64,000 nucleotides of DNA from an uncultured Clostridia bacterium. Its GTDB lineage: Bacteria > Bacillota > Clostridia > Oscillospirales > Ruminococcaceae. Each line of letters begins with the position of its first letter. Within the stretch, counting starts at the first letter, position 1. The notes beneath the pieces were generated by a model. It worked only from the letters and a program-made list of their open reading frames with translations, was not told the DNA's origin and searched no databases. Made by a program: the position numbers and the translations under genes. Of the stretch, positions 1,728 to 64,000 are shown piece by piece. The DNA is taken from contig CANRAO010000002.1 in NCBI GenBank assembly GCA_947628615.1, forward strand, positions 51,156 through 115,155, written 5' to 3'.

Positions 1728-2486
1728 TTGGTTAAAAGCTCAAGAAAAATATATGCTGCCTTAGGTGTTATTTTCTCGTACATCGTAATTTACAGCTTCC
1801 TGCATGGTATCAGCACAGATATTCCCAATAACTACAATGCCCATGAAAACGCAATCGCAACTTCTTCCTCATCAGACGATTCAAAGCCCATTATCATTTT
1901 AGACGCAGGTCACGGCGGAGTTGACGGAGGCTGTTCTGCTTATAACGGTGCTTTGGAAAAAGAAATAAACCTCAGTATTGAACTTTCTCTCAAGTCTATT
2001 CTTGAAACATTCGGTTACTCTGTAGAAGTTACCCGCTCGACCGATACTTCTATTTTTGACCCTGGTATAGTGGGTATTTCAAAACAGAAAAAGTCAGATA
2101 TGAGCAACCGCCTTGCTCTATTTAACAAATACGAAAACGCCGTTGCAATATCTATTCATCAAAATCAGTTCACCGACCCCCAATACAGCGGTGCTCAGAT
2201 GTTCTATACCGAGACAAATCCGCTTAGTCAACCGCTTGCTCAGACACTTCAGAACACCTTTAGAAACAAGCTTCAAAAGAATAATGACAGAGAAATAAAA
2301 AATGCAGGAAAAGATCTATATCTGCTCTATTATTCCAAATGCCCGTCTGTTATGGTCGAATGCGGTTTTCTATCCAATAAGCAGGAAGCCGATCTGCTTC
2401 TCTCTAAGGGTTATCAAAAGCAGGTTGCACTAACAATTTTCTGCGGTCTGAATGATTTTATTAGAACTAATTATAAAAGCATATAA
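1728..2486 (+). CDS. cwlD: N-acetylmuramoyl-L-alanine amidase, CwlD-like (germination-specific, Amidase_3)
   Basis: TTG start with GGAG 9 nt upstream. N-terminal TM segment, then ILDAGHGGVDGG .. SIHQN .. ECGFLSN, which are typical Amidase_3/CwlD motifs. The ~250 aa size fits CwlD. Confidence 0.8.
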   Translation: MVKSSRKIYAALGVIFSYIVIYSFLHGISTDIPNNYNAHENAIATSSSSDDSKPIIILDAGHGGVDGGCSAYNGALEKEINLSIELSLKSILETFGYSVEVTRSTDTSIFDPGIVGISKQKKSDMSNRLALFNKYENAVAISIHQNQFTDPQYSGAQMFYTETNPLSQPLAQTLQNTFRNKLQKNNDREIKNAGKDLYLLYYSKCPSVMVECGFLSNKQEADLLLSKGYQKQVALTIFCGLNDFIRTNYKSI

Positions 2487-2647: not shown

Positions 2648-5600
2648 TCATTTAACCTTAACTTTCTTTGCTTTCTTAATCCAACTGCTGTAAGCCTTCC
2701 TCGACTTTCCTTTTGAATCTTTATAAGTAGCATATGCTCTTACCCTTACAAAGTAGGTCTTTTTACTCTTAATTTTGCTTCCCTTTATTGTTATTTTTTT
2801 CTTTTTTGTATACTTATCATATAATGGTTTCTTAAACTTATTCTTTTTGGAAACCTGTATATTATATCCTTTAGCTTTACTAACCTTTTTCCAGCTTACA
2901 ATTATCTTTTTCTTTGTCTTGCTCTTTACTTTAAGCTGTGTTATCTTTGCCTGCCTCATTGCATTTTCTGCCTTGAGTTGTGAAGCAGTTTTTGTTACTT
3001 TTACAATTGAAGATGCTTTTGGTTTATCCGTAATCCTTGCAGTTGTAGGCACTGTTGATGTCTGTGCAGGTGTATTGTCCGATTTTGATGAATCTGATGA
3101 TGATTCTGACGATTTTGACGGCTCTGTCGGATTAGTCGGTATATATGTACCCAGATCATCAATAGCGGCCTTCAGCTTATCTATAACCGCTGTCCTCTGA
3201 TTATCATCTGCTGAAGCGTTATTGTAGACGTCTACAAGATCTTTGTATGCCGTTTCAAACTGCTCCCACTGACTACTGCTGTAATTAGCATTTTTCTTGA
3301 TTGATGCAGCATCAAACAGAAGTTCCTTAACTTCTCCGCTTTTATTCAAAACCATATTGCTATATGCTGTTGCAAATTCATCATATACGGCTTTTTTGCG
3401 GTCATAATTAGTCTTTGAATTATAAAGTGCAGACTTCAGTGTACTCAGCTTGGATTTCATTTCAGAATACCCGCTGACGCAATCACTTGAATCTAATGCT
3501 TCACATTTTATAATCGCCTGATTAAATTTTACCATATCCAAAGCATAAACATCTCTTGCAACATAGGTATAGCCCTTGTTATCTCCTCCATTAAAAAATA
3601 CTTTAATCCATTTTTCGCAATCATTGGCACTCCCAATATTTGCACCTGTTGGGAATCTAAGAAAATACTTATCTAAGTTAGGATAATACAAATTGTGAAG
3701 CTCTGCCATTATGTTCATAACACGACTAGGCTCGTAGCTGGTCTTAGCAAGGTCTTCAATATTATCGAAAACCTTTTGTGCAAAATCAGGATTCTGCATC
3801 AATTTGTAAACTAATGTCTGAATAGGATCATTGTTTCCTCTTCCGCCATTATAGATCTGATAAAGCTTGTCATTTTCAGGGCTTTCACCATCATTTCCCC
3901 AGAGGAATGCTCCCATCTCTACATCATAGAACATAAATCTCCATTTGCCGTCGCTGTACTTTCCTCCGGTCTCTGTATCAACTGTTCTTGTTCTCCAAAC
4001 TTCCCAGTTTTTACCCGACCAGTCTTCGTTTGAGATATATGTTTCCACTGCAACGTAATCGGCAAAGCTGTCTAAATCTATCATCTTAGAAATTTCTTCA
4101 TAATCCGCCTTCTTTGAAAAATCCTTTGAAGAATCCTTAAAATAGCTTACAAAATCATTCCAAAGAGTTACGTCCTCGTCCGTACCTTCCTCTATCTTGG
4201 GGGCATTATTGTTTTCAGTATCAGGCTTGATCATTACAACATTATCTTTATCAACGCCGAAATGACTTTGTGCATAGTCGTCGTTATAATCTTCCTGCAT
4301 AGTATAAATTCCCCAGTATTCGCCGTTTATAAATGCAATACAAGGAACGCTTGCCTGAGTTGAAAAATTCCTGTCAAGCACGCAGGTTTGCAAAAGTGAG
4401 TCTTTATACTTTACATAGTTAGCGTCATTACCGCCGTTTCTGAGTGTGATTTTCTTAAACGATGTAATAGAATTACCTTCTGTATCCTTTGCTTTGCCGT
4501 CAAAGAAATCATATTTAAAGCTCTTTTCACCGTAATCGCTTCTTGCATAAAGCCTGAGGCTCTTTTGATATTCTCCTCTTGAATATCCTCCCTGAATTCT
4601 TATACCGCATTCTTGTGAAAACACAGCTTCATTATTCTTTATGTAATCAATATGCACAGGTCTTTCCCATTCTTTACCCTTGTTAGTGCAGTTTTTCTGA
4701 AGATATATTCCGTTCTGATCGCCAAATAAATTATCTGCATCGGTAACAATAGACATTATCGGAACACCCGAATATGTTTCATTTGTCTTTCCGACAAAAT
4801 ATGATTTTGTAACAACATTACTTGAATCTCCGTTTTTAATAGCAACAGCTCTGATAACCGTAGCCTTATCGACCTTGACCGTAGGCGCATCACTTCTATC
4901 CCAGCCCCTATGGTCTCCGTCAGTTAATTTTTCCTTGCTTATTGCAGAAAGAACATTATCTTCACTGGTTCTGTCAACAACATTAATCTTTCCTTCATAC
5001 TTATTTGACTTGTCAGTAGGAGTGCTTCCGTCAGTGGTATAATATATTTCTGTACCCTCCTCTGCAGTGATCTCAAGATCAAAACTGCTTTCAAACGCAC
5101 CGCTCTCTCTTGAAAATTTCGGAGACTGTATAACCGACTTAGCATTATTATTGCTTTCACCCGGCGTTGGGAATACCACCTTGCAGTTCTCATCACCGTC
5201 AGGGATCCTTGCATAAGTAGTATCATCAACAAGAGAAGGCACAGTCAACTTATTTACACTTTCAGATGTACTTGAAAGCAAATCCAAATCCAAACCATCA
5301 CTCGAAATATTCATAGCAACATACGGCTTGGAGTCAACCATAGTCGCATCCAAATGACTATTGCAGTACAACACAAGGTAACCATTTGCCGGCACTACTG
5401 CAGTACCGTTAATGGTTTCTGTTTTATCCTTTGCATCCAAATCAATCTTTTTAACCTGATAACCGGATATATCTATTGCAGAACCGGTTGGATTATAAAG
5501 CTCGATCCAGTCGCAAAGCTCAGTTTTAGTTTCACCGTCTTTTTCATAAACTGCTTTGACATCTGTTAGATTTCCGTTTTCACCGCTGTTTCCAAGACAA

Positions 5601-5719
5601 ACCTCATTAATAACAATGCTTTCAGCCGCCGTACCAATTACAAATGCAGACATACTGATAGCTGTACAAGTTATTGCTGCAGCCGTTGCAAAGCTAGTTA
5701 TTTTCTTTAAAACACCCAT
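2648..5719 (-). CDS. Secreted CotH kinase-like protein: signal peptide, lamin-tail domain, CHB_HEX_C-like domain, CotH core, helical region, S-rich linker, Lys-rich FN3-like C-terminal module
   Basis: AGGAGG RBS and signal peptide MGVLKKITSFATAAAITCTAISMSAFV. LTD-like INEVC..WIELYNPTGSAIDISGYQV; FESSFDLEITAEEGTEIYYTTDGSTPT. The CotH-family core is long (LRLYARSDYG.., INGEYWGIYTMQE). The tail ends KGYNIQVS..YFVRVRAYATYKD..KVKVK. Confidence 0.85.
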   Translation of the reverse strand: MGVLKKITSFATAAAITCTAISMSAFVIGTAAESIVINEVCLGNSGENGNLTDVKAVYEKDGETKTELCDWIELYNPTGSAIDISGYQVKKIDLDAKDKTETINGTAVVPANGYLVLYCNSHLDATMVDSKPYVAMNISSDGLDLDLLSSTSESVNKLTVPSLVDDTTYARIPDGDENCKVVFPTPGESNNNAKSVIQSPKFSRESGAFESSFDLEITAEEGTEIYYTTDGSTPTDKSNKYEGKINVVDRTSEDNVLSAISKEKLTDGDHRGWDRSDAPTVKVDKATVIRAVAIKNGDSSNVVTKSYFVGKTNETYSGVPIMSIVTDADNLFGDQNGIYLQKNCTNKGKEWERPVHIDYIKNNEAVFSQECGIRIQGGYSRGEYQKSLRLYARSDYGEKSFKYDFFDGKAKDTEGNSITSFKKITLRNGGNDANYVKYKDSLLQTCVLDRNFSTQASVPCIAFINGEYWGIYTMQEDYNDDYAQSHFGVDKDNVVMIKPDTENNNAPKIEEGTDEDVTLWNDFVSYFKDSSKDFSKKADYEEISKMIDLDSFADYVAVETYISNEDWSGKNWEVWRTRTVDTETGGKYSDGKWRFMFYDVEMGAFLWGNDGESPENDKLYQIYNGGRGNNDPIQTLVYKLMQNPDFAQKVFDNIEDLAKTSYEPSRVMNIMAELHNLYYPNLDKYFLRFPTGANIGSANDCEKWIKVFFNGGDNKGYTYVARDVYALDMVKFNQAIIKCEALDSSDCVSGYSEMKSKLSTLKSALYNSKTNYDRKKAVYDEFATAYSNMVLNKSGEVKELLFDAASIKKNANYSSSQWEQFETAYKDLVDVYNNASADDNQRTAVIDKLKAAIDDLGTYIPTNPTEPSKSSESSSDSSKSDNTPAQTSTVPTTARITDKPKASSIVKVTKTASQLKAENAMRQAKITQLKVKSKTKKKIIVSWKKVSKAKGYNIQVSKKNKFKKPLYDKYTKKKKITIKGSKIKSKKTYFVRVRAYATYKDSKGKSRKAYSSWIKKAKKVKVK

Positions 5720-6088: not shown

Positions 6089-8225
6089 CCCACTGGGCAT
6101 ATATTTAGGAATATTTAGAAGGCTTTTATCTGCCGCCTTAGAAAACATCTTGCTTTCCAAAGGCAGAGTGTGTAGCTCTCTCTGCTACTTTACTTTTACT
6201 TTTCTGAGCTTCTTGTTCCATTTACTATATACTTTTTGAGCCTTTCCATTTATATCTTTGTACGTTGTGTACGCGCTCACCCTGACATAGTATTTCTTTC
6301 CGCTCTTGATCTTCTTAGTGATCTTTAAAGTCTTCTTTTTTGTGTGCTTGTCGAAGATGATCTTGCTCTTCTTGAATTTCTTGTTCGTTGATACCTGGAC
6401 TCTGTAGCCCTTGGCTTTCTTGACCTTCTTCCAAGATACTGTGATCGTCTTCTTTGCTTTGCTCTTTACTTTGAGCTTTTTAATCTTTGCCTGCCTCATT
6501 TGACTCTTAGCTTTTGCTTTTGCTGCTTTTACTGCATCTGCTTTGCTGGTTGTCTTTACAATAACATTATTATTTACCGGCGGCTTATTAACGTTAGTGC
6601 CGACATTATTGTTGTTATTGTTTACGCTAGGCTTTTCACTTGGACTCGTAGGTTTTTCCTTAAGTCCACTGATTGCTTCCTCTATGGCTGCTTTCGCTGC
6701 CTTGAGGTCTCTAACTGTTAAGTTAGAATTTTGTTTTGCTATTAATCCTTTTGCTTCATTAATGGTTTCTGATAGTTTTGCATAACTATCTTCTGTGTAT
6801 TTACTACTATCAATTGCTTCTGCTTCTTCTACTGCTTTACTTAATTCATCTTTAGCTGCTTGTATTGCATCTGTGTCTTTCTTAAGACCATTTACAGCGC
6901 TAGTGAGATTATCTGATGCTTCCTCTAAATCTGATACTTTTGAATCTACTGTAACACTCTTAGCTGCTTCTATTGCATCTGTCAATGCTTGATAGCTATC
7001 TGCTGTGTAGCTTTCTGAATCCAATGCCTCTGCGCTTTCTATTAACTTCTGCAAATCGCTCAGCATTTTTTCTTTATCTACCTCTTCAAGACGGTCAATA
7101 AATGTATTCAAATTACTTGCTGCATTAGTTATCGTTCCTCTGTCAGTTACACTTTCCAGATCATCAAGAATCGCCTTTGCAGCGTCATATGCAGCCTGCA
7201 ATGCTTCTATCTGACTTGCTGTATACTTATACTCCGGACCGTCATCAAGAATTGCTTTTGCTTTATCCACTGCTTCCTGAAGTGCAGGAACATAAGCACT
7301 GAAATCTGTTATTGGTACAAGCTTGTCATATGCTGCTTTTATCTGCTCCTTGAAGCTGTTCAACTGTTCTGACGATACTGCTCCGGTAAGTACAAAGGAA
7401 GTTGTGTATTTTTCTGCCAATTCCTTCTGCAGTTCTTCAAAACCTGAAGATGTCCATGAATCTTCTGTATAGTCTGCTTTGTTAGTATTAATATATGTAT
7501 TCATTTCAGCTATGAAAGCGTTTCTTTCCTCCGGAGAAGCTAAATCTGCAGTTAATACAAGTGCTTTTATACCTTCATCAAGCTTTGTTATTGCATCTGT
7601 TATATCTGTAATCTTTGCTGCCGGATCAGCATATACCTTCTTTGCATAATCATACAATGACATATCTGCTGTCTCATCTCCGTCAGTATCGATCACCTTA
7701 TCAGTGAATACAGATGCTGCATTCCGATGATAATCACCTTGATGAGTTTTTACCTCATCAGCCTGATCTATTACTGCCTTCAAACCGGTCTTCAGTGCTT
7801 CGTTAGGATCCTTTACCTGTACCTCTTTTACTGCAGTTGAACCCTTATATTCATCCGTACCATCTAAACTTGCTTTGATCCAATAGTGTCCTACAGCAAG
7901 GTCGTCAGAATTGTACTTATATGACGGACTGTCAGTACATTCTGCATTACCGTGAATCTCAAGTTTAACCTTATCCTTCAATTCAGCATTTTCAACATTG
8001 TCTAACTTTACAGTAACGCTTGGCTTAAATCCGCCCTTTGTTCCGTAGTTGATGTCAGCACAGTTGATTTCTATGCTGCTGGTTTTACGTTCGTCTGTCA
8101 AATCCTCTACGATCATGCTTTCAGGAACAGGTGCTGAGCCGCCTTTAGTTCCATCAACTATCTGTTGTTTAACACCTGAGTCTTTAACAACATGGATTTT
8201 GGCATCTGGAATATCTTTGAATGTC
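6089..8225. repeat. Direct repeat copy 1 (~2.1 kb), paired with 12159-14300
   Basis: 6185-7759 reads identical to 12259-13833 (first mismatches at 7760 and 7772). Identity is ~90% up to ~8225. The repeat includes ~96 nt of shared 3' UTR. Confidence 0.9.
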
Positions 8226-8695
8226 GTAAATGCTCTAGGTGCAAATCGACCATCAAATACCACACTTGATGCATATATATATATATCTTTTAATGTAGTT
8301 GAACAAGACTCAAAGGTACGATGTTTAATAGTGAGTATATCTTTACAAGTATATTCAACTTTTTCCAAAGAGTTCAAACCGCTAAAAGCTGACACCGCCA
8401 CAGAAAGAGTTGGTGAAGCAGTTTTAACTGTTCTTATAGTGTTTCCAGCGTTGTTTGTACCTAAAGTATTCAATGCAACTGGCAATATACCATTTAAACC
8501 ATCATTAAAATCTTCAGGTATCACTAAATCACTAACACCTGTTAAATCAACTTCACTTTTAAATGATGCTTCGTATACGCTCCCAATTTTTGTATACTGA
8601 AAATAAATGTCAGTATTTATAGCATTACCAGTTATTGTTATACACGATGTTACTAAAATTAATGATAAAACTAAAGATAAAACTTTTTTTAACAC
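6185..8695 (-). CDS. Surface protein paralogue A: probable lipoprotein signal, short BspA-type LRR head, Ig-like region, FIVAR-like helical repeats, N/P/S linker, Lys-rich FN3-like C-terminal module
   Basis: The ORF track runs to 8782, but AGGAG lies 10 nt before the in-frame GTG at 8695, giving (M)LKKVLSLVLSLILVTSC, a lipobox-like sequence. FIVAR-like YTADSYQALTDAIEAAKSV and YTEDSYAKLSETINEAKGL. The tail ends GYRVQVS..YYVRVSAYTTYKD..KVKVK. Confidence 0.85.
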   Translation of the reverse strand: MLKKVLSLVLSLILVTSCITITGNAINTDIYFQYTKIGSVYEASFKSEVDLTGVSDLVIPEDFNDGLNGILPVALNTLGTNNAGNTIRTVKTASPTLSVAVSAFSGLNSLEKVEYTCKDILTIKHRTFESCSTTLKDIYIYASSVVFDGRFAPRAFTTFKDIPDAKIHVVKDSGVKQQIVDGTKGGSAPVPESMIVEDLTDERKTSSIEINCADINYGTKGGFKPSVTVKLDNVENAELKDKVKLEIHGNAECTDSPSYKYNSDDLAVGHYWIKASLDGTDEYKGSTAVKEVQVKDPNEALKTGLKAVIDQADEVKTHQGDYHRNAASVFTDKVIDTDGDETADMSLYDYAKKVYADPAAKITDITDAITKLDEGIKALVLTADLASPEERNAFIAEMNTYINTNKADYTEDSWTSSGFEELQKELAEKYTTSFVLTGAVSSEQLNSFKEQIKAAYDKLVPITDFSAYVPALQEAVDKAKAILDDGPEYKYTASQIEALQAAYDAAKAILDDLESVTDRGTITNAASNLNTFIDRLEEVDKEKMLSDLQKLIESAEALDSESYTADSYQALTDAIEAAKSVTVDSKVSDLEEASDNLTSAVNGLKKDTDAIQAAKDELSKAVEEAEAIDSSKYTEDSYAKLSETINEAKGLIAKQNSNLTVRDLKAAKAAIEEAISGLKEKPTSPSEKPSVNNNNNNVGTNVNKPPVNNNVIVKTTSKADAVKAAKAKAKSQMRQAKIKKLKVKSKAKKTITVSWKKVKKAKGYRVQVSTNKKFKKSKIIFDKHTKKKTLKITKKIKSGKKYYVRVSAYTTYKDINGKAQKVYSKWNKKLRKVKVK

Positions 8696-8797
8696 TACTA
8701 AACAACTCCTTAGAAAATTAATATATCTCATATATATGATTATTTCTGTGACATTATGATAAATACCACAGAAAATAATCATATTTATAAAAGAAAT

Positions 8798-8829
8798 ATA
8801 TTAGGCATATTAATTAATATGCCTAATAT
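8798..8829 (-). terminator. AT-rich perfect palindrome, probable terminator of the GH5 gene
   Basis: atattaggcatattaa/ttaatatgcctaatat forms a 16-bp stem, followed on the minus strand by atttctttt. Confidence 0.55.
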
Positions 8830-8838
8830 TATTAATTT

Positions 8839-10911
8839 CTAAGTAGCTGATGTAGGATTAGGGTTAGGATTAGGATTAGGGTTAGGGTTAGGATTTTGAT
8901 CGTATCCAGCAATAATTGAATCAACAATAGTCTGACCAGTTGTTGTAATTTTATTATTAATCCTATCAAATAATCCTGTTCCACCTACAGTAGTAACACC
9001 ATTATCCCAATAAGCAGTTACTATACCTAAATCTGCTGCATAATAATTTAACCAATAATCATAATTAGTTACCTGTACTAAATTATTACCAATAGTTCCA
9101 TCACTATTAGTAACAGATTTAAGCAAAGGACCATATTCACCTATGAAAACTGGCATACCTAAATTCCTTGCAAAATTGCTAATTGCGGTAAACTGAGCCT
9201 CCATATATGCTTTTCCACCGTATTCAGCATTTTCATCCCATATACTTGTACCATTTTCATATAGTGCAAAGGGTTGTGGATCATAATAATGAACATCAAG
9301 CATTAATCTGTCAGGTGTTGGATCTGCTGGCTTTGTGAATCCAGCAATGGTATAACCAATATTTGTAGCAAATCCTACAACCATCAATACACGGTCATCA
9401 TTATTTGTTCCTTCAGCATTACGTACAGCTTCAACAAATGCTGCATTAAGTGCATTTATATTGCTGTATTCATTTGCTGTTGGATTAGAAAAAGTATAAT
9501 TAGCAAGCTCATTAGCAGCCTCAAATACTAATTTTTGATCATAACCTGCAAAATTATTAGCTATATCTGTCCATACAGCTGCAAATTTGTTCTTGATTGC
9601 CTCAAATTCAGTACCTGTTTTGGTTATATCAATCCAACTTCCCGGTGTATTTAAATCACCATCATTATGGATATTGATTACAACGTACATACCAAGATTA
9701 TATGCATAGTTTACTACCTGCTGAATTCTTGCCATATAAGCGTCATCGATCTGGTTATTACCGTCAATCATATTCAAATATGAAATAGGTATTCTGACTG
9801 TATTAAATCCGGCTTCCTTTACAGCTTGAATAAGCTTCATAGTTGTTTTTGGGTTGCCCCAAGCCTTCTCATTAACACCCTTATCGTCAGATGCCTCAAG
9901 TGAGTTACCTAAATCCCAAGCAAGACCCATATTTGAAGCGATTGTTGAAGCCGTCTGTCCTGTTACAGGATTTGAAACTATGCCTTCAGTGTTATCATAT
10001 ACCTTAATCTCTGTAACTGTACACATATCATATGCAGCTATAAAGCTGGTGACAGAGTTAGGTACTTCTGTGGTAAAGGTATATGTGCCTTCTTCCAAAT
10101 CTACATAGTTTGGATCAACAGCTACATATATCATATTACCTTCATCATCAAGTTCGCCAGTTGGCAGCATGATTTCTGCTTGTGCAAAGTTACCCTGCTC
10201 ATCAACGCTCTCTTTTGCATATGTAACTGTTACGTCAATTGTTGGATTTGTCCATGCATTCAAATCAATTGCGGTAACCTCAATGTTCCACTCATTACCA
10301 CTAACTGTTGCTGCACCTGTAGGGTTTACTGTGAAATTACTTGCAGTACCCTTAGTCCAGCTACCTGTAGCGGTAAATGGCTTCTGAACATATTCGCCTG
10401 ATATTAAATCAAGTGATACTATAGTTACCTCTGATGTACCAAGCTGTGCTCCTGTCTGAAGGTTAATACCATAAGGTGTTGCACCCTCTGCAAGTTTGCT
10501 CTCAATTACTGAAATAGGAACATTTACTGTGTATTCCGTTCCTGCAACAGGAGTTCTACCACCTGTCTGATCATATCCGTTAGGACCTATTGTTGTTCTG
10601 TTCCAGCCACCCCAGGCTGTGTCGTATACAAGGAACTCGAAAGTATCATTGTATCCAACATCAGGTTCACCTTCCTGAGGTTCTGCCGGTGTTCCTACAA
10701 CATCATACTTAAACGTGATCTGGAATGCAGAATCCTGATAATATTGAGTTCTTGGGTAATTACCAATGAAAGTTGCATTACCTGTGAATGGGCCCTCATT
10801 TGAAATAAGGTTTGTATCAGCGTTTGCGCTTAACGATGTGCCTCCAATGAGACTTGTTGCTGCTAATGCTGTTGCAGCAACACATGAAAGCAATTTTTTA
10901 AACTTTCTCAT
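8839..10911 (-). CDS. Secreted glycoside hydrolase family 5 endoglucanase (cellulase) with an unassigned ~330-aa N-terminal region and a terminal (PN)n linker
   Basis: GGAGG RBS and signal peptide MRKFKKLLSCVAATALAATSLIGGTSLSANA. GH5 motifs NTVRIPISY, FEAANE (acid/base) and IGEYG (nucleophile). The protein ends PNPNPNPNPNPNPTSAT*. Confidence 0.85.
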   Translation of the reverse strand: MRKFKKLLSCVAATALAATSLIGGTSLSANADTNLISNEGPFTGNATFIGNYPRTQYYQDSAFQITFKYDVVGTPAEPQEGEPDVGYNDTFEFLVYDTAWGGWNRTTIGPNGYDQTGGRTPVAGTEYTVNVPISVIESKLAEGATPYGINLQTGAQLGTSEVTIVSLDLISGEYVQKPFTATGSWTKGTASNFTVNPTGAATVSGNEWNIEVTAIDLNAWTNPTIDVTVTYAKESVDEQGNFAQAEIMLPTGELDDEGNMIYVAVDPNYVDLEEGTYTFTTEVPNSVTSFIAAYDMCTVTEIKVYDNTEGIVSNPVTGQTASTIASNMGLAWDLGNSLEASDDKGVNEKAWGNPKTTMKLIQAVKEAGFNTVRIPISYLNMIDGNNQIDDAYMARIQQVVNYAYNLGMYVVINIHNDGDLNTPGSWIDITKTGTEFEAIKNKFAAVWTDIANNFAGYDQKLVFEAANELANYTFSNPTANEYSNINALNAAFVEAVRNAEGTNNDDRVLMVVGFATNIGYTIAGFTKPADPTPDRLMLDVHYYDPQPFALYENGTSIWDENAEYGGKAYMEAQFTAISNFARNLGMPVFIGEYGPLLKSVTNSDGTIGNNLVQVTNYDYWLNYYAADLGIVTAYWDNGVTTVGGTGLFDRINNKITTTGQTIVDSIIAGYDQNPNPNPNPNPNPNPTSAT
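8854..8895 (-). repeat. In-frame hexanucleotide repeat (7 units of AGGATT/AGGGTT) encoding the (PN)n tail of GH5
   Basis: The + strand reads aggatt agggtt aggatt aggatt agggtt agggtt aggatt, which translates as PNPNPN.. on the minus strand. Confidence 0.9.
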
Positions 10912-11084
10912 AGTCTAATCCTCCTATCTGATTAAATATTTAAAAAATTGACTTCGTTCTCCGGCATAAATGCTCTAGAATCAATTATGCCTTCAAACTT
11001 GAGCGCGTCGCCGTAAACTATTGTCTGCGGCTACAATTAAATAGTGCATCGGTTAACCTTATCTTTATTTAATTGTCTGATTTT

Positions 11085-11113
11085 ACATTAATATATTATC
11101 CTTTTAATGTCAA
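11085..11113 (-). promoter_or_regulatory. Candidate sigma-A promoter of the GH5 gene (TTGACA-17-TAATGT)
   Basis: Minus strand reads TTGACAttaaaaggataatatatTAATGT, ~170 nt upstream of the GH5 ATG. The -10 element is only moderate. Confidence 0.4.
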
Positions 11114-11119
11114 TAAACT

Positions 11120-11150
11120 TGTCCCGAAATTCCATTTTATGTCTCGAAAT
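11120..11150 (-). promoter_or_regulatory. Pair of direct repeats (TGTCCCGAAAT / TGTCTCGAAAT, 20-nt period): candidate LytTR-regulator binding site
   Basis: Repeats at 11120-11130 and 11140-11150 match at 10 of 11 positions. They end 6 nt upstream of the candidate -35 and are adjacent to the LytTR regulator gene. Confidence 0.4.
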
Positions 11151-11262
11151 AACAAAATTAGCATATGTATTTTATATAAAATTTCCTAGTAATTTGTCGA
11201 TATTTTGGTCATTTCATTACCTTTTTTCAGCTTTATTCTAAAATTTTTGCCCTATCCTTTCT

Positions 11263-11967
11263 TTATAACTCCTCTACCTTCCTTTTGTATGTCGCTTCGA
11301 ATTCCTTCGACCGACCTTTCGACAACGGTATTTCATCATCGTTGTTCATAAATATTTTTTCATTCCTTATGTATGTCTTGATTTGCGATAAGTTTACTAT
11401 GTGACTTCTGTGCGGCATGAAAAAATCAAAATTGCTGAGTTCTGAATATATTTCGTTTATTATTCCTCTGCATATATAATCATTGTCATTAGTTATTACT
11501 ATTACCTCTCTCTTTTTCGTTCCGCAGGATATGTACATTATTTTGTCCGCAGATATTAGTATTTCCCTGCCGTTTAATTGCTTGAATTTTATTACGTCTT
11601 TCCTTAGAAAGTTCGCAAACCTTAGATAATCTTCTAATATCCTGCTTATTTCTGTTTCCTTGCACGGCTTTTGTATGTAGTCGAATGCGTGAACTTTATA
11701 TGCCTGTTTTAAGTATTTAAAATTGTCGGTTATAAATACTATCTGTACTTGCGGATCAATTCTTCGTATTCTTCTTGCCAGTTTTATTTCTTCTATTCCC
11801 TTTATTTCTAAAAAAATCAAATTGAATCTAATGTGAGTTTGTAATAACTCTTTTCCGTCAGTATAAGTGAATACGTGTACCTCTGCATTAAATTTTGGAG
11901 CATCTCTATATAGGATTTCAGTTATTCCTTTTGCCTCCTCATTATCATAAACAGCAATTCTATACAT
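11263..11967 (-). CDS. LytR/AlgR-family response regulator (REC-like + LytTR DNA-binding domain) with an atypical receiver
   Basis: GGAGGG RBS before the ATG at 11967 (MYRIAVYDNEE..); the ORF-track start at 12015 lacks an RBS. LytTR domain has HRSHIVNLSQIK. The receiver has FLEIKG where the LD(I/V)xMP phospho-acceptor is expected. Confidence 0.85.
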   Translation of the reverse strand: MYRIAVYDNEEAKGITEILYRDAPKFNAEVHVFTYTDGKELLQTHIRFNLIFLEIKGIEEIKLARRIRRIDPQVQIVFITDNFKYLKQAYKVHAFDYIQKPCKETEISRILEDYLRFANFLRKDVIKFKQLNGREILISADKIMYISCGTKKREVIVITNDNDYICRGIINEIYSELSNFDFFMPHRSHIVNLSQIKTYIRNEKIFMNNDDEIPLSKGRSKEFEATYKRKVEEL

Positions 11968-11986
11968 ATTATCACCCTCCAAAAAC

Positions 11987-12015
11987 ACTATACCAAAATT
12001 ATACAAGAAATTCAA
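11987..12015 (-). promoter_or_regulatory. Sigma-A promoter of the LytTR regulator gene (TTGAAT-17-TATAGT)
   Basis: Minus strand reads TTGAATttcttgtataattttggTATAGT, ~20 nt upstream of the RBS. Confidence 0.55.
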
Positions 12016-12084
12016 TACATCATTATCTATTTTTTGATATTTTTTGCAAAATTTTTATTTATTATTTACAATTATTATAAAATA

Positions 12085-12158: not shown

Positions 12159-14300
12159 CCCACTGGGCATATATTTAGGAATATTTAGAAGGCTTTTATC
12201 TGCCGCCTTTGGAAACCATCTTGCTTTCCAAAGGCAGAGTGTGAGTGGCGTCACGCCACTACTTTACTTTTACTTTTCTGAGCTTCTTGTTCCATTTACT
12301 ATATACTTTTTGAGCCTTTCCATTTATATCTTTGTACGTTGTGTACGCGCTCACCCTGACATAGTATTTCTTTCCGCTCTTGATCTTCTTAGTGATCTTT
12401 AAAGTCTTCTTTTTTGTGTGCTTGTCGAAGATGATCTTGCTCTTCTTGAATTTCTTGTTCGTTGATACCTGGACTCTGTAGCCCTTGGCTTTCTTGACCT
12501 TCTTCCAAGATACTGTGATCGTCTTCTTTGCTTTGCTCTTTACTTTGAGCTTTTTAATCTTTGCCTGCCTCATTTGACTCTTAGCTTTTGCTTTTGCTGC
12601 TTTTACTGCATCTGCTTTGCTGGTTGTCTTTACAATAACATTATTATTTACCGGCGGCTTATTAACGTTAGTGCCGACATTATTGTTGTTATTGTTTACG
12701 CTAGGCTTTTCACTTGGACTCGTAGGTTTTTCCTTAAGTCCACTGATTGCTTCCTCTATGGCTGCTTTCGCTGCCTTGAGGTCTCTAACTGTTAAGTTAG
12801 AATTTTGTTTTGCTATTAATCCTTTTGCTTCATTAATGGTTTCTGATAGTTTTGCATAACTATCTTCTGTGTATTTACTACTATCAATTGCTTCTGCTTC
12901 TTCTACTGCTTTACTTAATTCATCTTTAGCTGCTTGTATTGCATCTGTGTCTTTCTTAAGACCATTTACAGCGCTAGTGAGATTATCTGATGCTTCCTCT
13001 AAATCTGATACTTTTGAATCTACTGTAACACTCTTAGCTGCTTCTATTGCATCTGTCAATGCTTGATAGCTATCTGCTGTGTAGCTTTCTGAATCCAATG
13101 CCTCTGCGCTTTCTATTAACTTCTGCAAATCGCTCAGCATTTTTTCTTTATCTACCTCTTCAAGACGGTCAATAAATGTATTCAAATTACTTGCTGCATT
13201 AGTTATCGTTCCTCTGTCAGTTACACTTTCCAGATCATCAAGAATCGCCTTTGCAGCGTCATATGCAGCCTGCAATGCTTCTATCTGACTTGCTGTATAC
13301 TTATACTCCGGACCGTCATCAAGAATTGCTTTTGCTTTATCCACTGCTTCCTGAAGTGCAGGAACATAAGCACTGAAATCTGTTATTGGTACAAGCTTGT
13401 CATATGCTGCTTTTATCTGCTCCTTGAAGCTGTTCAACTGTTCTGACGATACTGCTCCGGTAAGTACAAAGGAAGTTGTGTATTTTTCTGCCAATTCCTT
13501 CTGCAGTTCTTCAAAACCTGAAGATGTCCATGAATCTTCTGTATAGTCTGCTTTGTTAGTATTAATATATGTATTCATTTCAGCTATGAAAGCGTTTCTT
13601 TCCTCCGGAGAAGCTAAATCTGCAGTTAATACAAGTGCTTTTATACCTTCATCAAGCTTTGTTATTGCATCTGTTATATCTGTAATCTTTGCTGCCGGAT
13701 CAGCATATACCTTCTTTGCATAATCATACAATGACATATCTGCTGTCTCATCTCCGTCAGTATCGATCACCTTATCAGTGAATACAGATGCTGCATTCCG
13801 ATGATAATCACCTTGATGAGTTTTTACCTCATCTGCCTGATCTATCACTGCCTTCAAACCGGTCTTCAGTGCTTCGTTAGGATCCTTTACCTGTACCTCT
13901 TTTACAGCTGTTGAACCCTTATATTCATCCGTACCATCTAAGCTTGCTTTGATCCAATAATGTCCTACAGCAAGGTCGTCAGAATTATATTCTAAGGCTC
14001 TTCCAGTACATTCACTATTATTATACATAGCCAATGTAACCTTATTCTTCAAATCAGCATTTTCAACATTGTCTAACTTTACAGTAACGCTTGGTTTAAA
14101 GCCGCCCTTTGTTCCGTAATTGATATCAGCACAGTTGATTTCTATGCTGCTGGTTTTACGGTCGTCTGTCAAATCTTCAATGATCATGCTTTCAGGAACA
14201 GGTGCTGTACCGCCTTTAGTTCCATCAACTATCTGCTGTTTAACGCCAGAGTCTTTTACAACGTGGATTTTGGCATCTGGAATATCTTTGAAAGTCATAA
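12159..14300. repeat. Direct repeat copy 2 (~2.1 kb), paired with 6089-8225
   Basis: See copy 1. The offset is 6,070 nt at the 3' UTR and grows to 6,074 nt at the stop codon, through a 1-nt and a 3-nt indel. Confidence 0.9.
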
Positions 14301-14775
14301 AGGCCATTTTACTAGTCCTAGCTACAGTAAAACTTACAGAAGAAGCATATATATATATATTTTTTAAAGTTGTAGAGCATTGAGAGAAAGTTAAAGCTGA
14401 AAACTCCAAATCATTTTTATTTGTATATCTAACCTCTTGTAAAGCATTTAAACCACGAAAAGCCGTTGCACCAAGAGATGCACTAGATGAAGAAGTTTTA
14501 ACAGAAGTAATACTATTGTTATTACTTAGACTAGCACTATTTAATTTTACATCCGCTTCACCATGACTATCATCATTATATTTATCAGGGAAATCTAAAG
14601 ATGTTATACTAGAAAAATCTTTACTTCCATTTAAAGAAGCTAAATAATAACCACCAGATGCATAACTAAAAGAAAAATAATCTAACTCCGTTGATGACGC
14701 ATACATAGCCCCTGTCAGCGATGTAACTGCCATTGTCGCAGCTGCTACAATGGATAAAAGTTTTTTTATAATCAT
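12259..14775 (-). CDS. Surface protein paralogue B: type-I signal peptide, divergent LRR head, then a body and Lys-rich C-terminal module identical to paralogue A
   Basis: The likely start is the ATG at 14775 (MIIKKLLSIVAAATMAVTSLTGAMYASS); the ORF track extends to 14832. The C-terminal ~525 aa (from ..QADEVKTHQGDYHRN..) are identical to paralogue A. Confidence 0.85.
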   Translation of the reverse strand: MIIKKLLSIVAAATMAVTSLTGAMYASSTELDYFSFSYASGGYYLASLNGSKDFSSITSLDFPDKYNDDSHGEADVKLNSASLSNNNSITSVKTSSSSASLGATAFRGLNALQEVRYTNKNDLEFSALTFSQCSTTLKNIYIYASSVSFTVARTSKMAFMTFKDIPDAKIHVVKDSGVKQQIVDGTKGGTAPVPESMIIEDLTDDRKTSSIEINCADINYGTKGGFKPSVTVKLDNVENADLKNKVTLAMYNNSECTGRALEYNSDDLAVGHYWIKASLDGTDEYKGSTAVKEVQVKDPNEALKTGLKAVIDQADEVKTHQGDYHRNAASVFTDKVIDTDGDETADMSLYDYAKKVYADPAAKITDITDAITKLDEGIKALVLTADLASPEERNAFIAEMNTYINTNKADYTEDSWTSSGFEELQKELAEKYTTSFVLTGAVSSEQLNSFKEQIKAAYDKLVPITDFSAYVPALQEAVDKAKAILDDGPEYKYTASQIEALQAAYDAAKAILDDLESVTDRGTITNAASNLNTFIDRLEEVDKEKMLSDLQKLIESAEALDSESYTADSYQALTDAIEAAKSVTVDSKVSDLEEASDNLTSAVNGLKKDTDAIQAAKDELSKAVEEAEAIDSSKYTEDSYAKLSETINEAKGLIAKQNSNLTVRDLKAAKAAIEEAISGLKEKPTSPSEKPSVNNNNNNVGTNVNKPPVNNNVIVKTTSKADAVKAAKAKAKSQMRQAKIKKLKVKSKAKKTITVSWKKVKKAKGYRVQVSTNKKFKKSKIIFDKHTKKKTLKITKKIKSGKKYYVRVSAYTTYKDINGKAQKVYSKWNKKLRKVKVK

Positions 14776-14991
14776 AAAAATCAACCTTTCTTTAATAAAA
14801 AAATTGCAGGCTAGTAATTTTGTAAACAACATTTAATTAATATATGCAAATCAGTTTTGCGGACAAAGCGCCTGCATACCTTATCCGTTATGCTGATATG
14901 CTGAAAAAACATCAATCACCCTCTTTGTTAAAAGCAGTAAATGCGGCATCACCCTCTTTTTTTTAATATAAAACAACATTGAGTAAAATAG

Positions 14992-15352: not shown

Positions 15353-15384
15353 ATAATAAAATTTTTATGAAATTAGGTGGTAAA

Positions 15385-15828
15385 ATGTCACGAGAAACAA
15401 TAGCAAAGGTACTAAGAAAATTAAGACTTCAGAGCGGATTAACAGCAAACGAAGTTGGAGCTATGATTGGTAAGAGCGGAAAAACGGTCAACGCATGGGA
15501 AAATAACAGAGGTCAGCCTGATGCAGATATGCTTATGAATTTATGTGATATATATAATGTAGAAGATATTCTGTCTGAGTTCAGAGAAGTTGAAAGAGAC
15601 GCATTTGCGGTATCACATCATGAAAAGGAAGTAGTATTGGCATATAGAGAGAACACTTCTATGCAGCCTGCGGTAGACAGACTTCTTGGTGTCGAGAAAT
15701 CAAAGAAAATAACAGTATACAAAGCTGCCCGCAGTGATAACAATACAGAAGAAGACGGTTATGTTGAGCTTACACAGGAGCAGGTTGACAGTCTTGTAAA
15801 CGCTCCCGAAACGGACGATGATTTTTAG
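15385..15828 (+). CDS. XRE-family repressor-like protein (ImmR-like) with an acidic C-terminal tail
   Basis: AGGTGG RBS before the ATG at 15385 (the ORF track starts at 15367). HTH: LRLQSGLTANEVGAMIGKSGKTVNAWENNRGQP. C-terminal tail ..NAPETDDDF. Confidence 0.8.
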   Translation: MSRETIAKVLRKLRLQSGLTANEVGAMIGKSGKTVNAWENNRGQPDADMLMNLCDIYNVEDILSEFREVERDAFAVSHHEKEVVLAYRENTSMQPAVDRLLGVEKSKKITVYKAARSDNNTEEDGYVELTQEQVDSLVNAPETDDDF

Positions 15829-15953
15829 TATAAATAAAAAAGGCTCTTTATGTTAATAATACATAAAGAGAGAGTAAAGCATAAAAAGCAATTAGCATAA
15901 CAACCGTCCTAAACAAAATGTAAGCTCCTGATAATGGAGTATAATCATAAAAA

Positions 15954-16526
15954 ATGATTTACGGAAAATACAAAAATGCAAGAAATGCCGCATGGCAGTG
16001 TCTTATTGATTATAATGTAAAATCACTACCTGTTTCGGTATTGAGCATTGCAAAATCGGCAGGAATCAAAGTTATAAAAAAAAGCAAGGCAAACAAGGAT
16101 TTACTTTTGCCTTATTTGAGCGGTATTAGTTTTTTAATAGGAAATCAGTGGTACATAGTATACAATGATAACAGTACCCGTCAGCGAAACCGATTTACCG
16201 TTGCGCACGAGCTTGGGCATATCTTTCTCGGTCACGAGTTAGAAAAGAGAAATCAAATGACGCAAGCGTTCATGAAGTCAGAATCCAATGCTGAACAGGA
16301 AGCGAACATATTTGCCTCAAGACTGTTAGCACCGGCATGCGTTTTATGGGCGCTTGGCTTAAAAAACTCAACTGAGATTGCGTCTGTCTGCGATATTTCT
16401 CACACAGCGGCAAAATTTCGTGCCGAGCGAATGGAAACGCTTTACAAGCGTAACAGATTTCTTATAGCGCCTCTTGAAAGAGAGGTATACAACAATTTTA
16501 AGACATTTTTACAAAATTGCAAATAA
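15954..16526 (+). CDS. ImmA/IrrE-family (COG2856) zinc metallopeptidase
   Basis: HExxH motif in FTVAHELGHIFLGHE. Its size and its position directly after an XRE gene are typical of the family. Confidence 0.8.
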   Translation: MIYGKYKNARNAAWQCLIDYNVKSLPVSVLSIAKSAGIKVIKKSKANKDLLLPYLSGISFLIGNQWYIVYNDNSTRQRNRFTVAHELGHIFLGHELEKRNQMTQAFMKSESNAEQEANIFASRLLAPACVLWALGLKNSTEIASVCDISHTAAKFRAERMETLYKRNRFLIAPLEREVYNNFKTFLQNCK

Positions 16527-62368: not shown

Positions 62369-64000
62369 CTATTTTACATTGACCTTTCTAACCTTTTTGA
62401 TCCACTTACTATAAACTTTCTGCGGTTTGCCGTATGCGTCCTTGTATGTTGCATATGCCCTTACTCGTACATAGTAGGTTTTACCGCTTTTAAGTTTCTT
62501 TTTGAATGTTATTTTCTTCTTAGTAGTAAACTTATCAAACAGATTATTCTTAAAGTTCTTCTTTTTAGATACCTGAACTTGATAGCCTACAGCTTTCTTT
62601 ACCTTTTTCCAAGAAACCGTTATCTTTTTCTTGGATTTGCTTTTTGCTTTAAGATGGGTAATCTTAGCCTGTTTTACTTTATTTTCAGCATTCTTCTTAT
62701 CTTTAGCAACCTGTGACGGACTTCTGGTTGTTGCAGTAGTAGTTTTTGATGTTGACGAAGGTTTGCTGCCAGGGGCAGTAGTTGTAGTAGTTGTTTGGCT
62801 TGATGACTGAACAGGCTTTTCTTTGAGTGCGTCAATTGCATCGTTAATAGCTTTTGCGAAAGCATCAACATCACTTTGTTTTGTAATATCAAGGTCTCTT
62901 ACAACTGCGTTAATTGCATCTTTCAGTGCATTTGCTGACTCGTCAGTGTATTTGCTTAAATCTAATTTATCAGCTTTTGCAAGGGCTTCGTCAACGGAGG
63001 TGTAGTTGGCATCATATGCAACAAGATTATTAATAGCAGTTGTTATATCTTCTGTTGCCCACTTCATAGGTAATATACTTGTAGTACTTTCATTAAATTG
63101 ATTTGCTTCTTCCAATGCGTTCTTTAAAGCTTGATAACTTTCTGGTGTATAATCATTTTCGTTAAGACTTTCTGCTTTATTTAATGTGTTTTTTAGGTTG
63201 TTCCAGGTACTTGATATAGTTTCTTCTATATTAACTTTTCTATCATTTGGAATAGAAGTACTGCTATATATACTTGAATCGGTATAGCAATGGAATTTAA
63301 AGAAATCATTGCAAAGCGGGATACCACCCATGCGTGTATATGAAATGCCGTGCAAATATAGATTTTCTAAAGAGTTACAATTTGCATTCCAACTTGCGTT
63401 TAAATATCCTAAGTCTAATATTCCATCAGATAGTTCTAGTGTCTTAAGATTTTCACATCCACTAAATGAACCATCAAAATTGCTGCTTTTGTTAACTTCT
63501 TTGATTTGTACCCCGTCTTCAATATATGCTTCTTCAAGTGAGTCACAGCCAACAAAAGCATATTTCATATTTGTTACAGATGAAGGAATAGTAATCTTCT
63601 TTAAAAATGGACAATTATGAAATGAAGCATAACTAATATTCTCAATTCCATCTTCAAATATTACAGATGATAATTTTTCACAATTGTTAAATGCACCATT
63701 AACAAACGTTCCAGCTATCTTTTCTGATTCTTCAATCCCGGCTGATACGTGTGAGTCATTAATAGTTTTAGGAATAAAAATGTTTTCTACTGCCGTATCA
63801 TAAAATGCATAAGGACCAATTGCGGTTAATCCTGTTTGTAATGTTATATCCTTTAATTTTGAACATTTTGCAAATGAATATGCACCAAAGTCTTTTATAG
63901 TTTTTGGAATTTCTACACTTTCTAAAGATGTACAACCGTAAAACGCAAAATTGCCTATAGCAGTCATGTTGTTAGATAAGGTAAGTTCTTTTAGAGATGT
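62369..64000 (-). CDS. BspA-type leucine-rich-repeat surface protein with FIVAR-like helices, T/S linker and Lys-rich FN3-like C-terminal module; N-terminus lies outside the window
   Basis: The reading frame stays open to the window edge (..TSLKELTLSNNMTAIGNFAFYGC..). LRR_5 repeats (AFYGCTSLESVEIP, SFAKCSKLKDITL). YTPESYQALKNALEEA. The tail ends GYQVQVS..YYVRVRAYATYKD..KVNVK. Confidence 0.85.
   Translation of the reverse strand, partial: TSLKELTLSNNMTAIGNFAFYGCTSLESVEIPKTIKDFGAYSFAKCSKLKDITLQTGLTAIGPYAFYDTAVENIFIPKTINDSHVSAGIEESEKIAGTFVNGAFNNCEKLSSVIFEDGIENISYASFHNCPFLKKITIPSSVTNMKYAFVGCDSLEEAYIEDGVQIKEVNKSSNFDGSFSGCENLKTLELSDGILDLGYLNASWNANCNSLENLYLHGISYTRMGGIPLCNDFFKFHCYTDSSIYSSTSIPNDRKVNIEETISSTWNNLKNTLNKAESLNENDYTPESYQALKNALEEANQFNESTTSILPMKWATEDITTAINNLVAYDANYTSVDEALAKADKLDLSKYTDESANALKDAINAVVRDLDITKQSDVDAFAKAINDAIDALKEKPVQSSSQTTTTTTAPGSKPSSTSKTTTATTRSPSQVAKDKKNAENKVKQAKITHLKAKSKSKKKITVSWKKVKKAVGYQVQVSKKKNFKNNLFDKFTTKKKITFKKKLKSGKTYYVRVRAYATYKDAYGKPQKVYSKWIKKVRKVNVK

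Follow-up and report, generated by a model that had tools for sequence, protein, structure and literature searches.

How gut Clostridia that lack cellulosomes hold enzymes and adhesins on their surface is poorly understood. The known ruminococcal answers are the dockerin-cohesin pair, sortase and carbohydrate-binding module family 37 (CBM37). Here, a lysine-rich module of the fibronectin type III (fn3) fold is described, which ends four exported proteins encoded in a stretch of 64,000 nucleotides from an uncultured Clostridia bacterium of the Ruminococcaceae (GenBank assembly GCA_947628615.1, contig CANRAO010000002.1, positions 51,156 to 115,155); this whole stretch is referred to as the window. 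The module would add a further answer, which can be read from the sequence alone, and is probably an unnamed device by which such proteins stay attached to the cell.

Dockerins (PF00404; types I to III) of cellulosomal Ruminococcus and Clostridia resemble the module in being C-terminal targeting domains of secreted glycoside hydrolases (GHs), leucine-rich repeat (LRR) proteins and CotH proteins, and genomes of Ruminococcus flavefaciens encode 180 to 223 dockerin carriers each (PMC4081043). They differ from the module, an fn3 sandwich, in their duplicated calcium-binding F-hand fold and in binding a cohesin protein. In Ruminococcus albus, CBM37 (CAZy family 37; original studies by Xu 2004 and Ezer 2008, as cited in PMC4081043) is located at the C-terminus of GH5, GH9, GH10, GH11, GH26, GH30, GH43 and GH48 enzymes; it also ends a CotH protein and numerous LRR proteins that have no catalytic domain, and each genome encodes 51 to 102 copies (PMC4081043, PMC4300822). 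It is reported to attach enzymes to carbohydrates of the bacterial cell wall or to the bacterial surface (PMC4081043, PMC4300822); besides the cell surface, its ligands include many polysaccharides, and shuttling between the two has been proposed (PMC4081043, PMC4954948). CBM37 was described in 2014 as unique to R. albus, a statement that may need updating: it is also found in proteins named from Ruminococcus sp. metagenome-assembled genomes (MAGs), including CotH-CBM37 and BspA-LRR-CBM37 proteins. The preliminary description of the window missed this precedent of an fn3-type C-terminal module with the same cargo (GH5, CotH, LRR).

Non-covalent wall retention by basic C-terminal parts, as envisaged for the module, is also known from the GW/SH3-8 domains of InlB and Atl, basic S-layer anchoring domains and cationic autolysins; however, these cationic wall binders (SH3b, SLAP and others) belong to other folds and families, the module is not matched by any of their Pfam models, and its charge density is far more extreme. 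Ligands of cationic Firmicutes wall binders include teichoic acids (PMC5817068, PMC4155827), which have been proposed as binding sites for cationic autolysins (PMC4155827). The part consulted of the table of wall-attachment domains in a 2018 review holds no fn3-type entry (PMC5817068). In ScpH of Streptococcus sanguinis, FIVAR and a lysine-rich tail tether a secreted protein to extracellular DNA (eDNA) (bioRxiv 10.64898/2026.05.25.726231). Like the module, this tail is a lysine-rich C-terminal element following FIVAR, which takes the place of LPXTG in orthologues, a likeness by composition and position alone; it differs in being a low-confidence, non-fn3 segment that acts together with FIVAR3 and belongs to a single protein family. 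Generic fn3 domains (PF00041), including the tandem arrays of giant surface proteins, have the same fold and detectable homology, but the internal ones are uncharged and non-terminal, whereas the module is strictly C-terminal, starts with an additional helix and has 30 conserved basic columns. No prior description of a lysine-rich terminal fn3 anchor was found in the open-access literature. Both the fold (fn3) and the functional class (C-terminal non-covalent surface attachment, as in ruminococci and in cationic wall binders) are known; a model specific to this family, however, exists neither in Pfam nor in NCBIfam.

Four lysine-rich fn3 modules in the window

Four open reading frames (ORFs) on the minus strand end in the same module, as stated in the preliminary description. 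A hidden Markov model (HMM) of the four tails, run against the six reading frames of the window, returned exactly four copies with E-values of 1e-45 to 3e-49 and no further copy; the next best match had an E-value of 0.028, and this gap places the window matches far above chance. The longest ORFs extend over positions 2648-5719 (CotH-like protein), 6185-8782 and 12259-14832 (LRR/FIVAR paralogues A and B) and from 62369 to beyond 64000 (BspA-type LRR protein). They are divided as follows:

2648..2992, minus strand: terminal module of the CotH-like protein (residues 910-1023), consisting of a short helix, the fn3 sandwich and the stop codon (AlphaFold2, Foldseek; Pfam fn3, 27.5 bits)
2993..3139, minus strand: linker of the CotH-like protein, S/T/P-rich and of low complexity, N-terminal to the module: PTNPTEPSKSSESSSDSSKSDNTPAQTSTVPTTARITDKPKASSIVKVT
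3140..5719, minus strand: head of the CotH-like protein with signal peptide, LTD, CHB_HEX_C/Fn3_assoc and a CotH kinase-like domain (Pfam)
6185..6532, minus strand: terminal module of LRR/FIVAR paralogue A, helix, fn3 and stop codon (Pfam fn3, 28.0 bits)
6533..6655, minus strand: linker of paralogue A, P/S/N-rich: KPTSPSEKPSVNNNNNNVGTNVNKPPVNNNVIVKTTSKADA
6656..8695, minus strand: head of paralogue A with signal peptide, divergent LRR-like N-terminal region, Ig-like region and three FIVAR; GTG start at 8695
12259..12606, minus strand: terminal module of LRR/FIVAR paralogue B, identical to that of paralogue A (sequence comparison)
12607..12729, minus strand: linker of paralogue B, P/S/N-rich (sequence)
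12730..14775, minus strand: head of paralogue B with signal peptide, a weak LRR_5 match and three FIVAR; ATG start at 14775
62369..62710, minus strand: terminal module of the BspA-type LRR protein, helix, fn3 and stop codon (Pfam fn3, 31.2 bits)
62711..62836, minus strand: linker of the BspA-type LRR protein, S/T/P-rich: ...KEKPVQSSSQTTTTTTAPGSKPSSTSKTTTATTRSPSQ
62837..64000, minus strand: head of the BspA-type LRR protein with LRR_5 repeats and a weak FIVAR match, cut at the end of the window (Pfam)

The GTG start of paralogue A, chosen in the preliminary description, is plausible. Signal-peptide-like N-termini are present in the CotH-like protein and in both paralogues; the truncated BspA-type ORF is 100% identical to the C-terminal 543 amino acids of a database protein of 703 amino acids (P0158), and this full-length twin starts with a signal peptide. 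Paralogues A and B are identical over their final 576 amino acids (1575 nucleotides), hence their identical tails, and the identity ends exactly at the stop codon; the N-terminal regions of around 250 amino acids differ. The shared stretch looks like a recent duplication or gene conversion spanning the part with FIVAR, linker and module. The window therefore holds three independent module sequences, which are 64-68% identical in pairwise comparisons.

The last 102 residues contain 36 lysines in the CotH-like protein, 37 in each paralogue and 33 in the BspA-type protein, each with two aspartates and no glutamate; the counts given before for the paralogues were exact. The tails have an isoelectric point of 10.7-10.8, compared with 4.7 for the remainder of each protein, and the net charge of the module is about +34 to +38. 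Each copy is preceded by the low-complexity S/T/P/N linker that had been noted. The conserved unit comprises around 114 amino acids and starts with a short helix, often 'TRSxxxVxKDKxAAxKxMKQAKI', around 13 residues upstream of 'QAKI'; the carrier proteins end in the last fn3 strand, ...KVKVK. An AlphaFold2 model based on a 51-sequence alignment (pLDDT 91.1, pTM 0.78) has a helix at residues 13-24, which is followed by a sandwich of seven to eight strands. Almost all of the listed Foldseek matches in the PDB are fn3 domains (DCC, sidekick, neogenin, monobodies), with TM-scores of 0.5-0.78 for alignments to single-domain fn3 chains, and no known wall-anchor fold is among them. Sequence searches of the PDB gave weak generic fn3 matches only (contactin, titin, gp130). 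With PF00041, the isolated tails score 27.5, 28.0 and 31.2 bits, above the gathering score of 25, and the full proteins 23.1-27.6 bits, which is borderline; the seven-stranded sandwich of this family is present in the AlphaFold2 model and in the Foldseek alignments. The fn3-like nature suggested from the strand pattern is thus borne out by AlphaFold2, Foldseek and Pfam, and hhalign pairs the module with ordinary tandem fn3 at 98.4% (E 1e-14).

Beyond generic fn3, no specific Pfam model reached its cut-off for the tails. The four window proteins have no match at E <= 1 to the LPXTG, SLH, dockerin, CW_binding, LysM and SH3b families, the first three of which had been noted as absent in the preliminary description; neither tails nor full proteins match the Pfam families CW_binding_1/2, SH3_3/5/8-GW, WxL, SPOR or PG_binding at this level, the set of non-covalent wall-binding domains having been drawn from PMC5817068. 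A sortase-type signal (LPXTG-like motif, transmembrane helix and basic tail; PF00746) was looked for in the tails, and neither motif nor transmembrane helix is present. NCBIfam release 20 contains no relevant match to the tails at E <= 1, including the sorting domains of the type IX secretion system (T9SS C-terminal domain, CTD), PEP-CTERM and GlyGly-CTERM. With no specific model in Pfam or NCBIfam, the module indeed has no family name of its own. Dockerins were also sought with a regular expression for paired calcium loops, which found none in the window or in the loci described below.

The positive charge is a feature of the terminal copies. In an alignment of 98 unique tails, 30 columns contain at least 80% lysine or arginine, 12 more contain 40-80%, and one column is conserved as acidic; therefore, the positions of the charges are kept and not merely the composition. 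Among 732 profile-matched internal tandem fn3 repeats in 95 giant proteins, the mean lysine content is 2.4% (maximum 14%), compared with 32-36% in the window copies. The net charge per 100 amino acids is +0.2 for internal fn3, +7 for CBM37, +18 for a terminal fn3 associated with Flg_new and +32 to +35 for the lysine-rich types. Lysine codons AAG/AAA number 85/58 in the window tails (positions 2651-2956, 6188-6493, 12262-12567 and 62372-62677) and 101/130 in the heads (Fisher p = 0.004); in a Ruminococcus MAG, the corresponding values are 352/158 and 104/193. The preference for AAG in the tails argues against a simple AT-driven drift in a genome with a GC content of 37%. Together with A runs of at most 5-7 nucleotides in the tails, this codon usage suggests selection against poly-A tracts in lysine-dense coding sequence. 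These comparisons indicate that the charge of the module is a selected, position-specific trait and that lysine-richness is confined to terminal copies. Tails encoded in one genome have 83-90% protein identity, and the heads show around 30-44% identity or nothing; third positions of codons for identical residues agree at 0.66-0.81 within genomes and at 0.52 between genomes. The tails are thus homogenised within genomes.

Distribution, cargo and related terminal modules

A scan of one genome per GTDB species yielded 78 loci. Figures from this and the other large searches refer to the best matches listed. The closest relatives of the window are the rabbit-gut MAGs Lapin-003-2__bin65 and Lapin-021__bin45, which are 92-94% identical to it in parts at the nucleotide level, and carriers occur in uncultured lineages of the rabbit, rumen and human gut. 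With a threshold of at least 95 bits, 74 distinct strong genomic matches were obtained, including 29 in Lapin-026__bin37, whose copy number is hence at least 29, 15 in Lapin-004__bin14, 15 in an uncultured Ruminococcus sp. MAG and one in the cultured Porcipelethomonas ammoniilytica (Oscillospiraceae). The match ends at the stop codon in 73 of the 74 cases and one residue earlier in the remaining one, so that the claim of a module common to unrelated exported proteins and always in last place holds. All but one of the complete carriers in the loci have signal-peptide-like N-termini, and their heads are net-acidic. The other secreted ORFs of the loci are mostly amidases or are cut inside the linker by contig ends.

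The same position is found in protein databases. A representative library of 1.84 billion proteins contains 207 profile matches below 1e-30, and every single-stretch match covers the full profile and lies at the exact C-terminus. Of the clusters at 50% identity, 38 representatives were examined, all of which (38/38) have the full profile at the exact C-terminus; they contain 28-41 lysines in the last 102 residues, and the N-terminus is hydrophobic in 37/38. A more distant form whose relationship is nevertheless clear has the sequence '...KKYYVRVRTYKxVNGKKVYSxWSKVKSVKxK' and was found in Eubacterium, Anaerostipes, Lachnospiraceae, Hornefia and even Adlercreutzia. It is also terminal and lysine-rich, ending at most five residues from the C-terminus in 117/120 cases, with a final K or R in 114/120, and hhalign pairs the module with the Lachnospiraceae-type module at 99.8% (E 3e-28).

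Other basic ends were observed alongside the module. The same genomes encode a second, divergent type of lysine-rich terminal fn3, which scores 33-71 bits with the module HMM, and another group of LRR proteins has a tail that does not look like fn3 ('...KKGIKFHVKNKKVAKSLKKQLKGSGVKNAKILIGKK...'), with 27-29 lysines in 102 residues. Divergent lysine-rich ends are located in L021 (minus strand, 1-1260 and 1378-2553 in reverse-strand coordinates), L017 (4184-7490), L035 (209-3059) and the proteins P0277 and P0278. In this lineage, basic ends of secreted proteins seem to be a recurrent pattern. In addition, locus L010 encodes a secreted protein of 1829 amino acids (6570-12056), which ends in the classical sorting signal '...QPDTGTEHSKAPIFLFAGLLLGAAVGVVYRFRKIKKDGKKNN'. 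Sortase-type anchoring and the lysine-rich module thus coexist in at least one of these MAGs.

Among 62 heads derived from the loci, LRR_5 (BspA-type) is most frequent (34), followed by FIVAR (21), GH5 (7), CotH (5), GH59 (3) and GH43 (2); GH30, GH39, CE2, CBM35 and RHS occur once each. The cargo of the 38 representatives is alike, with FIVAR in 19/38. Dockerin (PF00404), SLH, LPXTG-anchor and CW_binding families are absent from the lists returned for the 62 heads and the 38 representatives, and no dockerin or cohesin signal was seen in the carriers and loci. A search with the CotH head alone revealed orthologues with the same LTD-CHB_HEX_C-Fn3_assoc-CotH architecture that bear different C-terminal modules. 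The closest of them (72-93% identity) end in the lysine-rich module, and those of the next tier (47-53%) mostly end in a dockerin; one protein of this tier bears the name of a Ruminococcus sp. MAG. Two orthologues (P0287, P0297) carry a sortase-type signal with motif, transmembrane helix and basic tail, and two others (P0337, P0348) end in CBM37. The module therefore fills an architectural slot that is held by dockerin, CBM37 or a sortase signal in related Oscillospiraceae. This exchange and the dozens of copies per genome agree with the view that it behaves as a shared targeting module. Its cargo is of the same kind as that of dockerins and CBM37 (PMC4081043, PMC4300822), which supports a role in surface targeting.

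The identical cargo and the annotation of CBM37 proteins as 'fibronectin type III domain-containing' were the reason for asking whether the module is a CBM37. The comparison used the R. albus 7 xylanase GH11-CBM22-GH10-CBM37 (WP_013483737, plasmid pRUMAL02; L083 4611-7316) as reference and 56 clusters as family (P0389-P0444). CBM37 reaches 26.7 bits with fn3 in Pfam and is therefore itself an fn3-type terminal module. In both families, around 95-100 amino acids form the extreme C-terminus of signal-peptide proteins, dozens of copies occur per genome, the host family is Oscillospiraceae, the end is of the form ...V.V[KR], and the cargo (GH5, GH43, GH30, CotH and LRR proteins without catalytic domains) is shared. 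The positional features of CBM37, namely a C-terminal place on secreted GH, CotH and LRR proteins and many copies per genome, are thus found in the module as well. Membership was rejected because only superfamily-level similarity was found by hhalign, cross-HMM and BLASTP: the hhalign pairing (47.5%, E 2e-4) is the weakest of all pairings of the module, the cross-HMM comparison has medians of 9-11 bits, and BLASTP aligns 38 amino acids at E 0.037. Each of the two lies at least as near to generic fn3 as to the other. With +7 per 100 amino acids and 10% lysine, CBM37 is mildly basic at most, compared with +35 and 34% lysine for the module. CBM37 can be internal or tandem, whereas all module copies examined were single and terminal. 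Approximately 0.9 Mb sampled from module-bearing genomes contained no sequence resembling CBM37 or a dockerin. By these profile comparisons, the module is judged to be a separate sequence family, and CBM37 its closest functional analogue; CBM37 is one of several fn3-derived basic terminal modules. An assignment to a characterised anchor domain, which would have refuted the preliminary description, was thus not obtained by sequence comparison.

A family of proteins of around 170 amino acids consists of a hydrophobic N-terminus, a PT linker, the helix and the module, and nothing else (L079 8001-8519, L084 9001-9513, L085 8800-9303). On two independent contigs, the gene lies directly after the genes for the tape measure, Dit and a PblB-type/Peptidase_S74 receptor-binding fibre; in L079, it is located upstream of a holin gene. 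The third member is part of an island with Peptidase_S8, AAA, RE_AlwI and Trypsin_2. The proteins in the siphophage adsorption modules may act in superinfection exclusion or as envelope-binding accessories, and their position beside the receptor-binding fibre fits a module that recognises the host envelope. A tblastn search of deposited phage and plasmid collections gave no match, the low-complexity filter probably masking the lysine-rich queries. A scan of IMG/VR with window-type peptide patterns, which are too specific for the phage-borne variant, gave one weak locus, and PHROGs gave marginal matches only, to fn3 decorations of major tail proteins.

Possible functions of the module

The explanation to which we lean, albeit with restraint, is that the module retains proteins non-covalently at the cell surface by binding polyanionic polymers of the envelope. 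The module would be a lineage-specific, hyper-cationic fn3 domain, made up of a helix of around 12 residues and a sandwich of seven to eight strands, which is joined by an S/T/P/N linker to the C-terminus of acidic, Sec-exported proteins. After export and cleavage of the signal peptide, the polycationic fn3 would bind polyanionic envelope polymers of the producer, with wall or lipoteichoic acids, teichuronic acids, acidic secondary wall polysaccharides and the capsule as candidate ligands, and the linker would project the adhesin-like or glycoside-hydrolase head outwards. We infer both the polyanionic ligand and a mainly electrostatic mode of binding from sequence features. Surface retention is favoured because the module shares its slot with proven surface anchors, because LRR/FIVAR adhesin-like cargo has no other detectable anchor and because the selection for charge is position-specific; the link to phages and the precedents of CBM37 and of teichoic acid binding point in the same direction. 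Several observations weigh against this explanation. No wall-polymer genes linked to the loci were found, module genes are over-represented in the sample of loci, and the internal fn3 controls look closer to the module than they should, as they were themselves obtained with its profile. The sortase-type substrate in L010 belongs to the same lineage, so that the module is not the sole anchor available. Furthermore, the strongly conserved non-lysine surface positions, taken together with the homogenisation, could equally well reflect a specific protein partner.

Such a partner would be expected if the module acted like a dockerin and had its own receptor domain, presumably an acidic one, in a scaffold protein that is itself anchored. 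The homogenisation within genomes and divergence between them resemble a co-evolving pair of module and receptor, the module occupies the dockerin slot of CotH orthologues, and dozens of carriers per genome are typical of dockerin systems. Nevertheless, docking is quite improbable: no acidic repeat or scaffold candidate was found in approximately 0.9 Mb around the loci, cohesin and dockerin signals were missing there as well, and the conserved features are mostly the fn3 core and the lysine positions, as expected for binding to a polyanion and not for an interface of defined shape. Many carriers are glycoside hydrolases, and the analogous fn3-type CBM37 binds polysaccharides as well as the surface and was proposed to shuttle (PMC4081043, PMC4954948); the module might thus target substrates or host glycans in the manner of a carbohydrate-binding module, for instance anionic pectin/polygalacturonate, glucuronoxylan or sulfated or sialylated mucin, perhaps with shuttling between wall and substrate. 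We consider this unlikely, as over half of the loci carriers are adhesin-like proteins with LRR or FIVAR and no catalytic domain (LRR_5 in 34/62), which need attachment on the cell side to work as adhesins; moreover, the module-only phage proteins encoded next to a receptor-binding protein point to the bacterial envelope, and dockerins and sortase signals, which replace the module in orthologues, are cell-side anchors. Tethering of enzymes and adhesins to eDNA or matrix in biofilms, as in S. sanguinis ScpH, would be in line with the FIVAR found just upstream of the module in 19/38 and 21/62 carriers, and a domain with a net charge of +34 to +38 would have a high affinity for DNA. The ScpH tail, however, is a low-confidence, non-fn3 segment and the module a well-folded fn3; many carriers have no FIVAR match, the exchanges involve wall or scaffold anchors, and no link between the loci and eDNA release was found, which makes eDNA tethering rather unlikely.

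The module could also lack any targeting role and act as a spacer, solubility tag or charge-balancing domain, with lysines arising from AT bias or from neutralisation of the head. Fn3 domains often serve as spacers in extracellular proteins of bacteria, the genome has a high AT content (GC 37%), and the charge of the acidic heads is roughly balanced by that of the tails. But the internal fn3 relatives are not lysine-rich, the lysines are conserved column by column, and the tails prefer the G-ending codon AAG against the AT bias; a strictly terminal position and the interchange with anchors are unexpected for a spacer, and proteins consisting of the module alone exist, so that the absence of a targeting role is very improbable. 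The preliminary description had further considered a C-terminal sorting or secretion signal, which would be processed by dedicated machinery of the T9SS CTD, sortase or exosortase kind. The module is always the last domain and is found on many unrelated cargos, and the CTD of the T9SS is a beta-sandwich fold as well. This part of the description did not hold up and is given hardly any chance: Sec signal peptides are already present on the carriers (all but one of the complete ones), the combination of motif, transmembrane helix and basic tail is missing, NCBIfam sorting domains do not match, module-only proteins would be signals without cargo, and no conserved processing enzyme is encoded next to the loci. 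As Clostridia, the carriers would also be expected to have a single membrane, with no outer membrane to be crossed.

If surface retention by polyanion binding is the role of the module, it would show how a surface coating of lysines can convert an fn3 domain into a polyanion binder. The module marks dozens of proteins per genome and would give a simple rule for the prediction of surface proteomes; with around 114 amino acids, it would also be a compact display tag for such bacteria. The link to phage adsorption suggests that the ligand could be an envelope polymer of relevance to phages. A broader scenario is possible, although it falls somewhat short of being probable: the hyper-cationic fn3 would be the main sortase-independent display system of a large, mostly uncultured clade of gut Oscillospiraceae, with a sister form in Lachnospiraceae and Eubacterium. 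It would have arisen from ordinary fn3 repeats, would take over the function of both cohesin-dockerin and CBM37 and would tie dozens of adhesins and glycoside hydrolases per cell to anionic wall polymers; the siphophages of the clade would have adopted it as a small protein for envelope binding, encoded beside the receptor-binding fibre.

Neighbouring genes

A GH5 gene (8839-10911) and a gene for a LytTR response regulator (11263-12015) are located between paralogues A and B. The former encodes a secreted GH5 cellulase on the minus strand, 56 nucleotides upstream of gene A, which ends in an (NP)7 linker ('...NPNPNPNPNPNPNPTSAT', followed by the stop codon) without the terminal module. GH5 proteins with the lysine-rich module are present in related genomes (7/62 heads), and the window GH5 may have lost the module through recombination in the linker. 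A relative, L001, aligns over the same GH5 region and has no module match there.

A search for an acidic partner near the loci, using 100-amino-acid windows with a net charge of -28 or below in 595 ORFs, returned two low-complexity stretches only. An Amidase_3 (CwlD-like) gene (1728-2486, plus strand) adjoins the gene of the CotH-like protein, and near-identical amidase C-termini are found in seven related loci (L001, L002, L016, L019, L046, L048 and L051). Just downstream of the BspA-type gene lies an Amidase_6 gene (61728-62216, minus strand), and DpaA/DpaB are encoded at 55485-56980; with these amidases and DpaA/DpaB, the window organism appears to be a spore former. Just past paralogue B, a gene for an XRE-type helix-turn-helix protein is followed by a Peptidase_M78 (ImmA/IrrE-like) gene (15367-16526, plus strand), which is the typical regulatory pair of a mobile element or prophage. 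Two further exported proteins of the window are a secreted transglutaminase-like protein (45598-46452, minus strand) and a GDSL lipase/esterase (51878-52948, plus strand) with a C-terminal transmembrane helix and a basic tail; the latter shows that a different retention route for an exported enzyme exists in the same genome.

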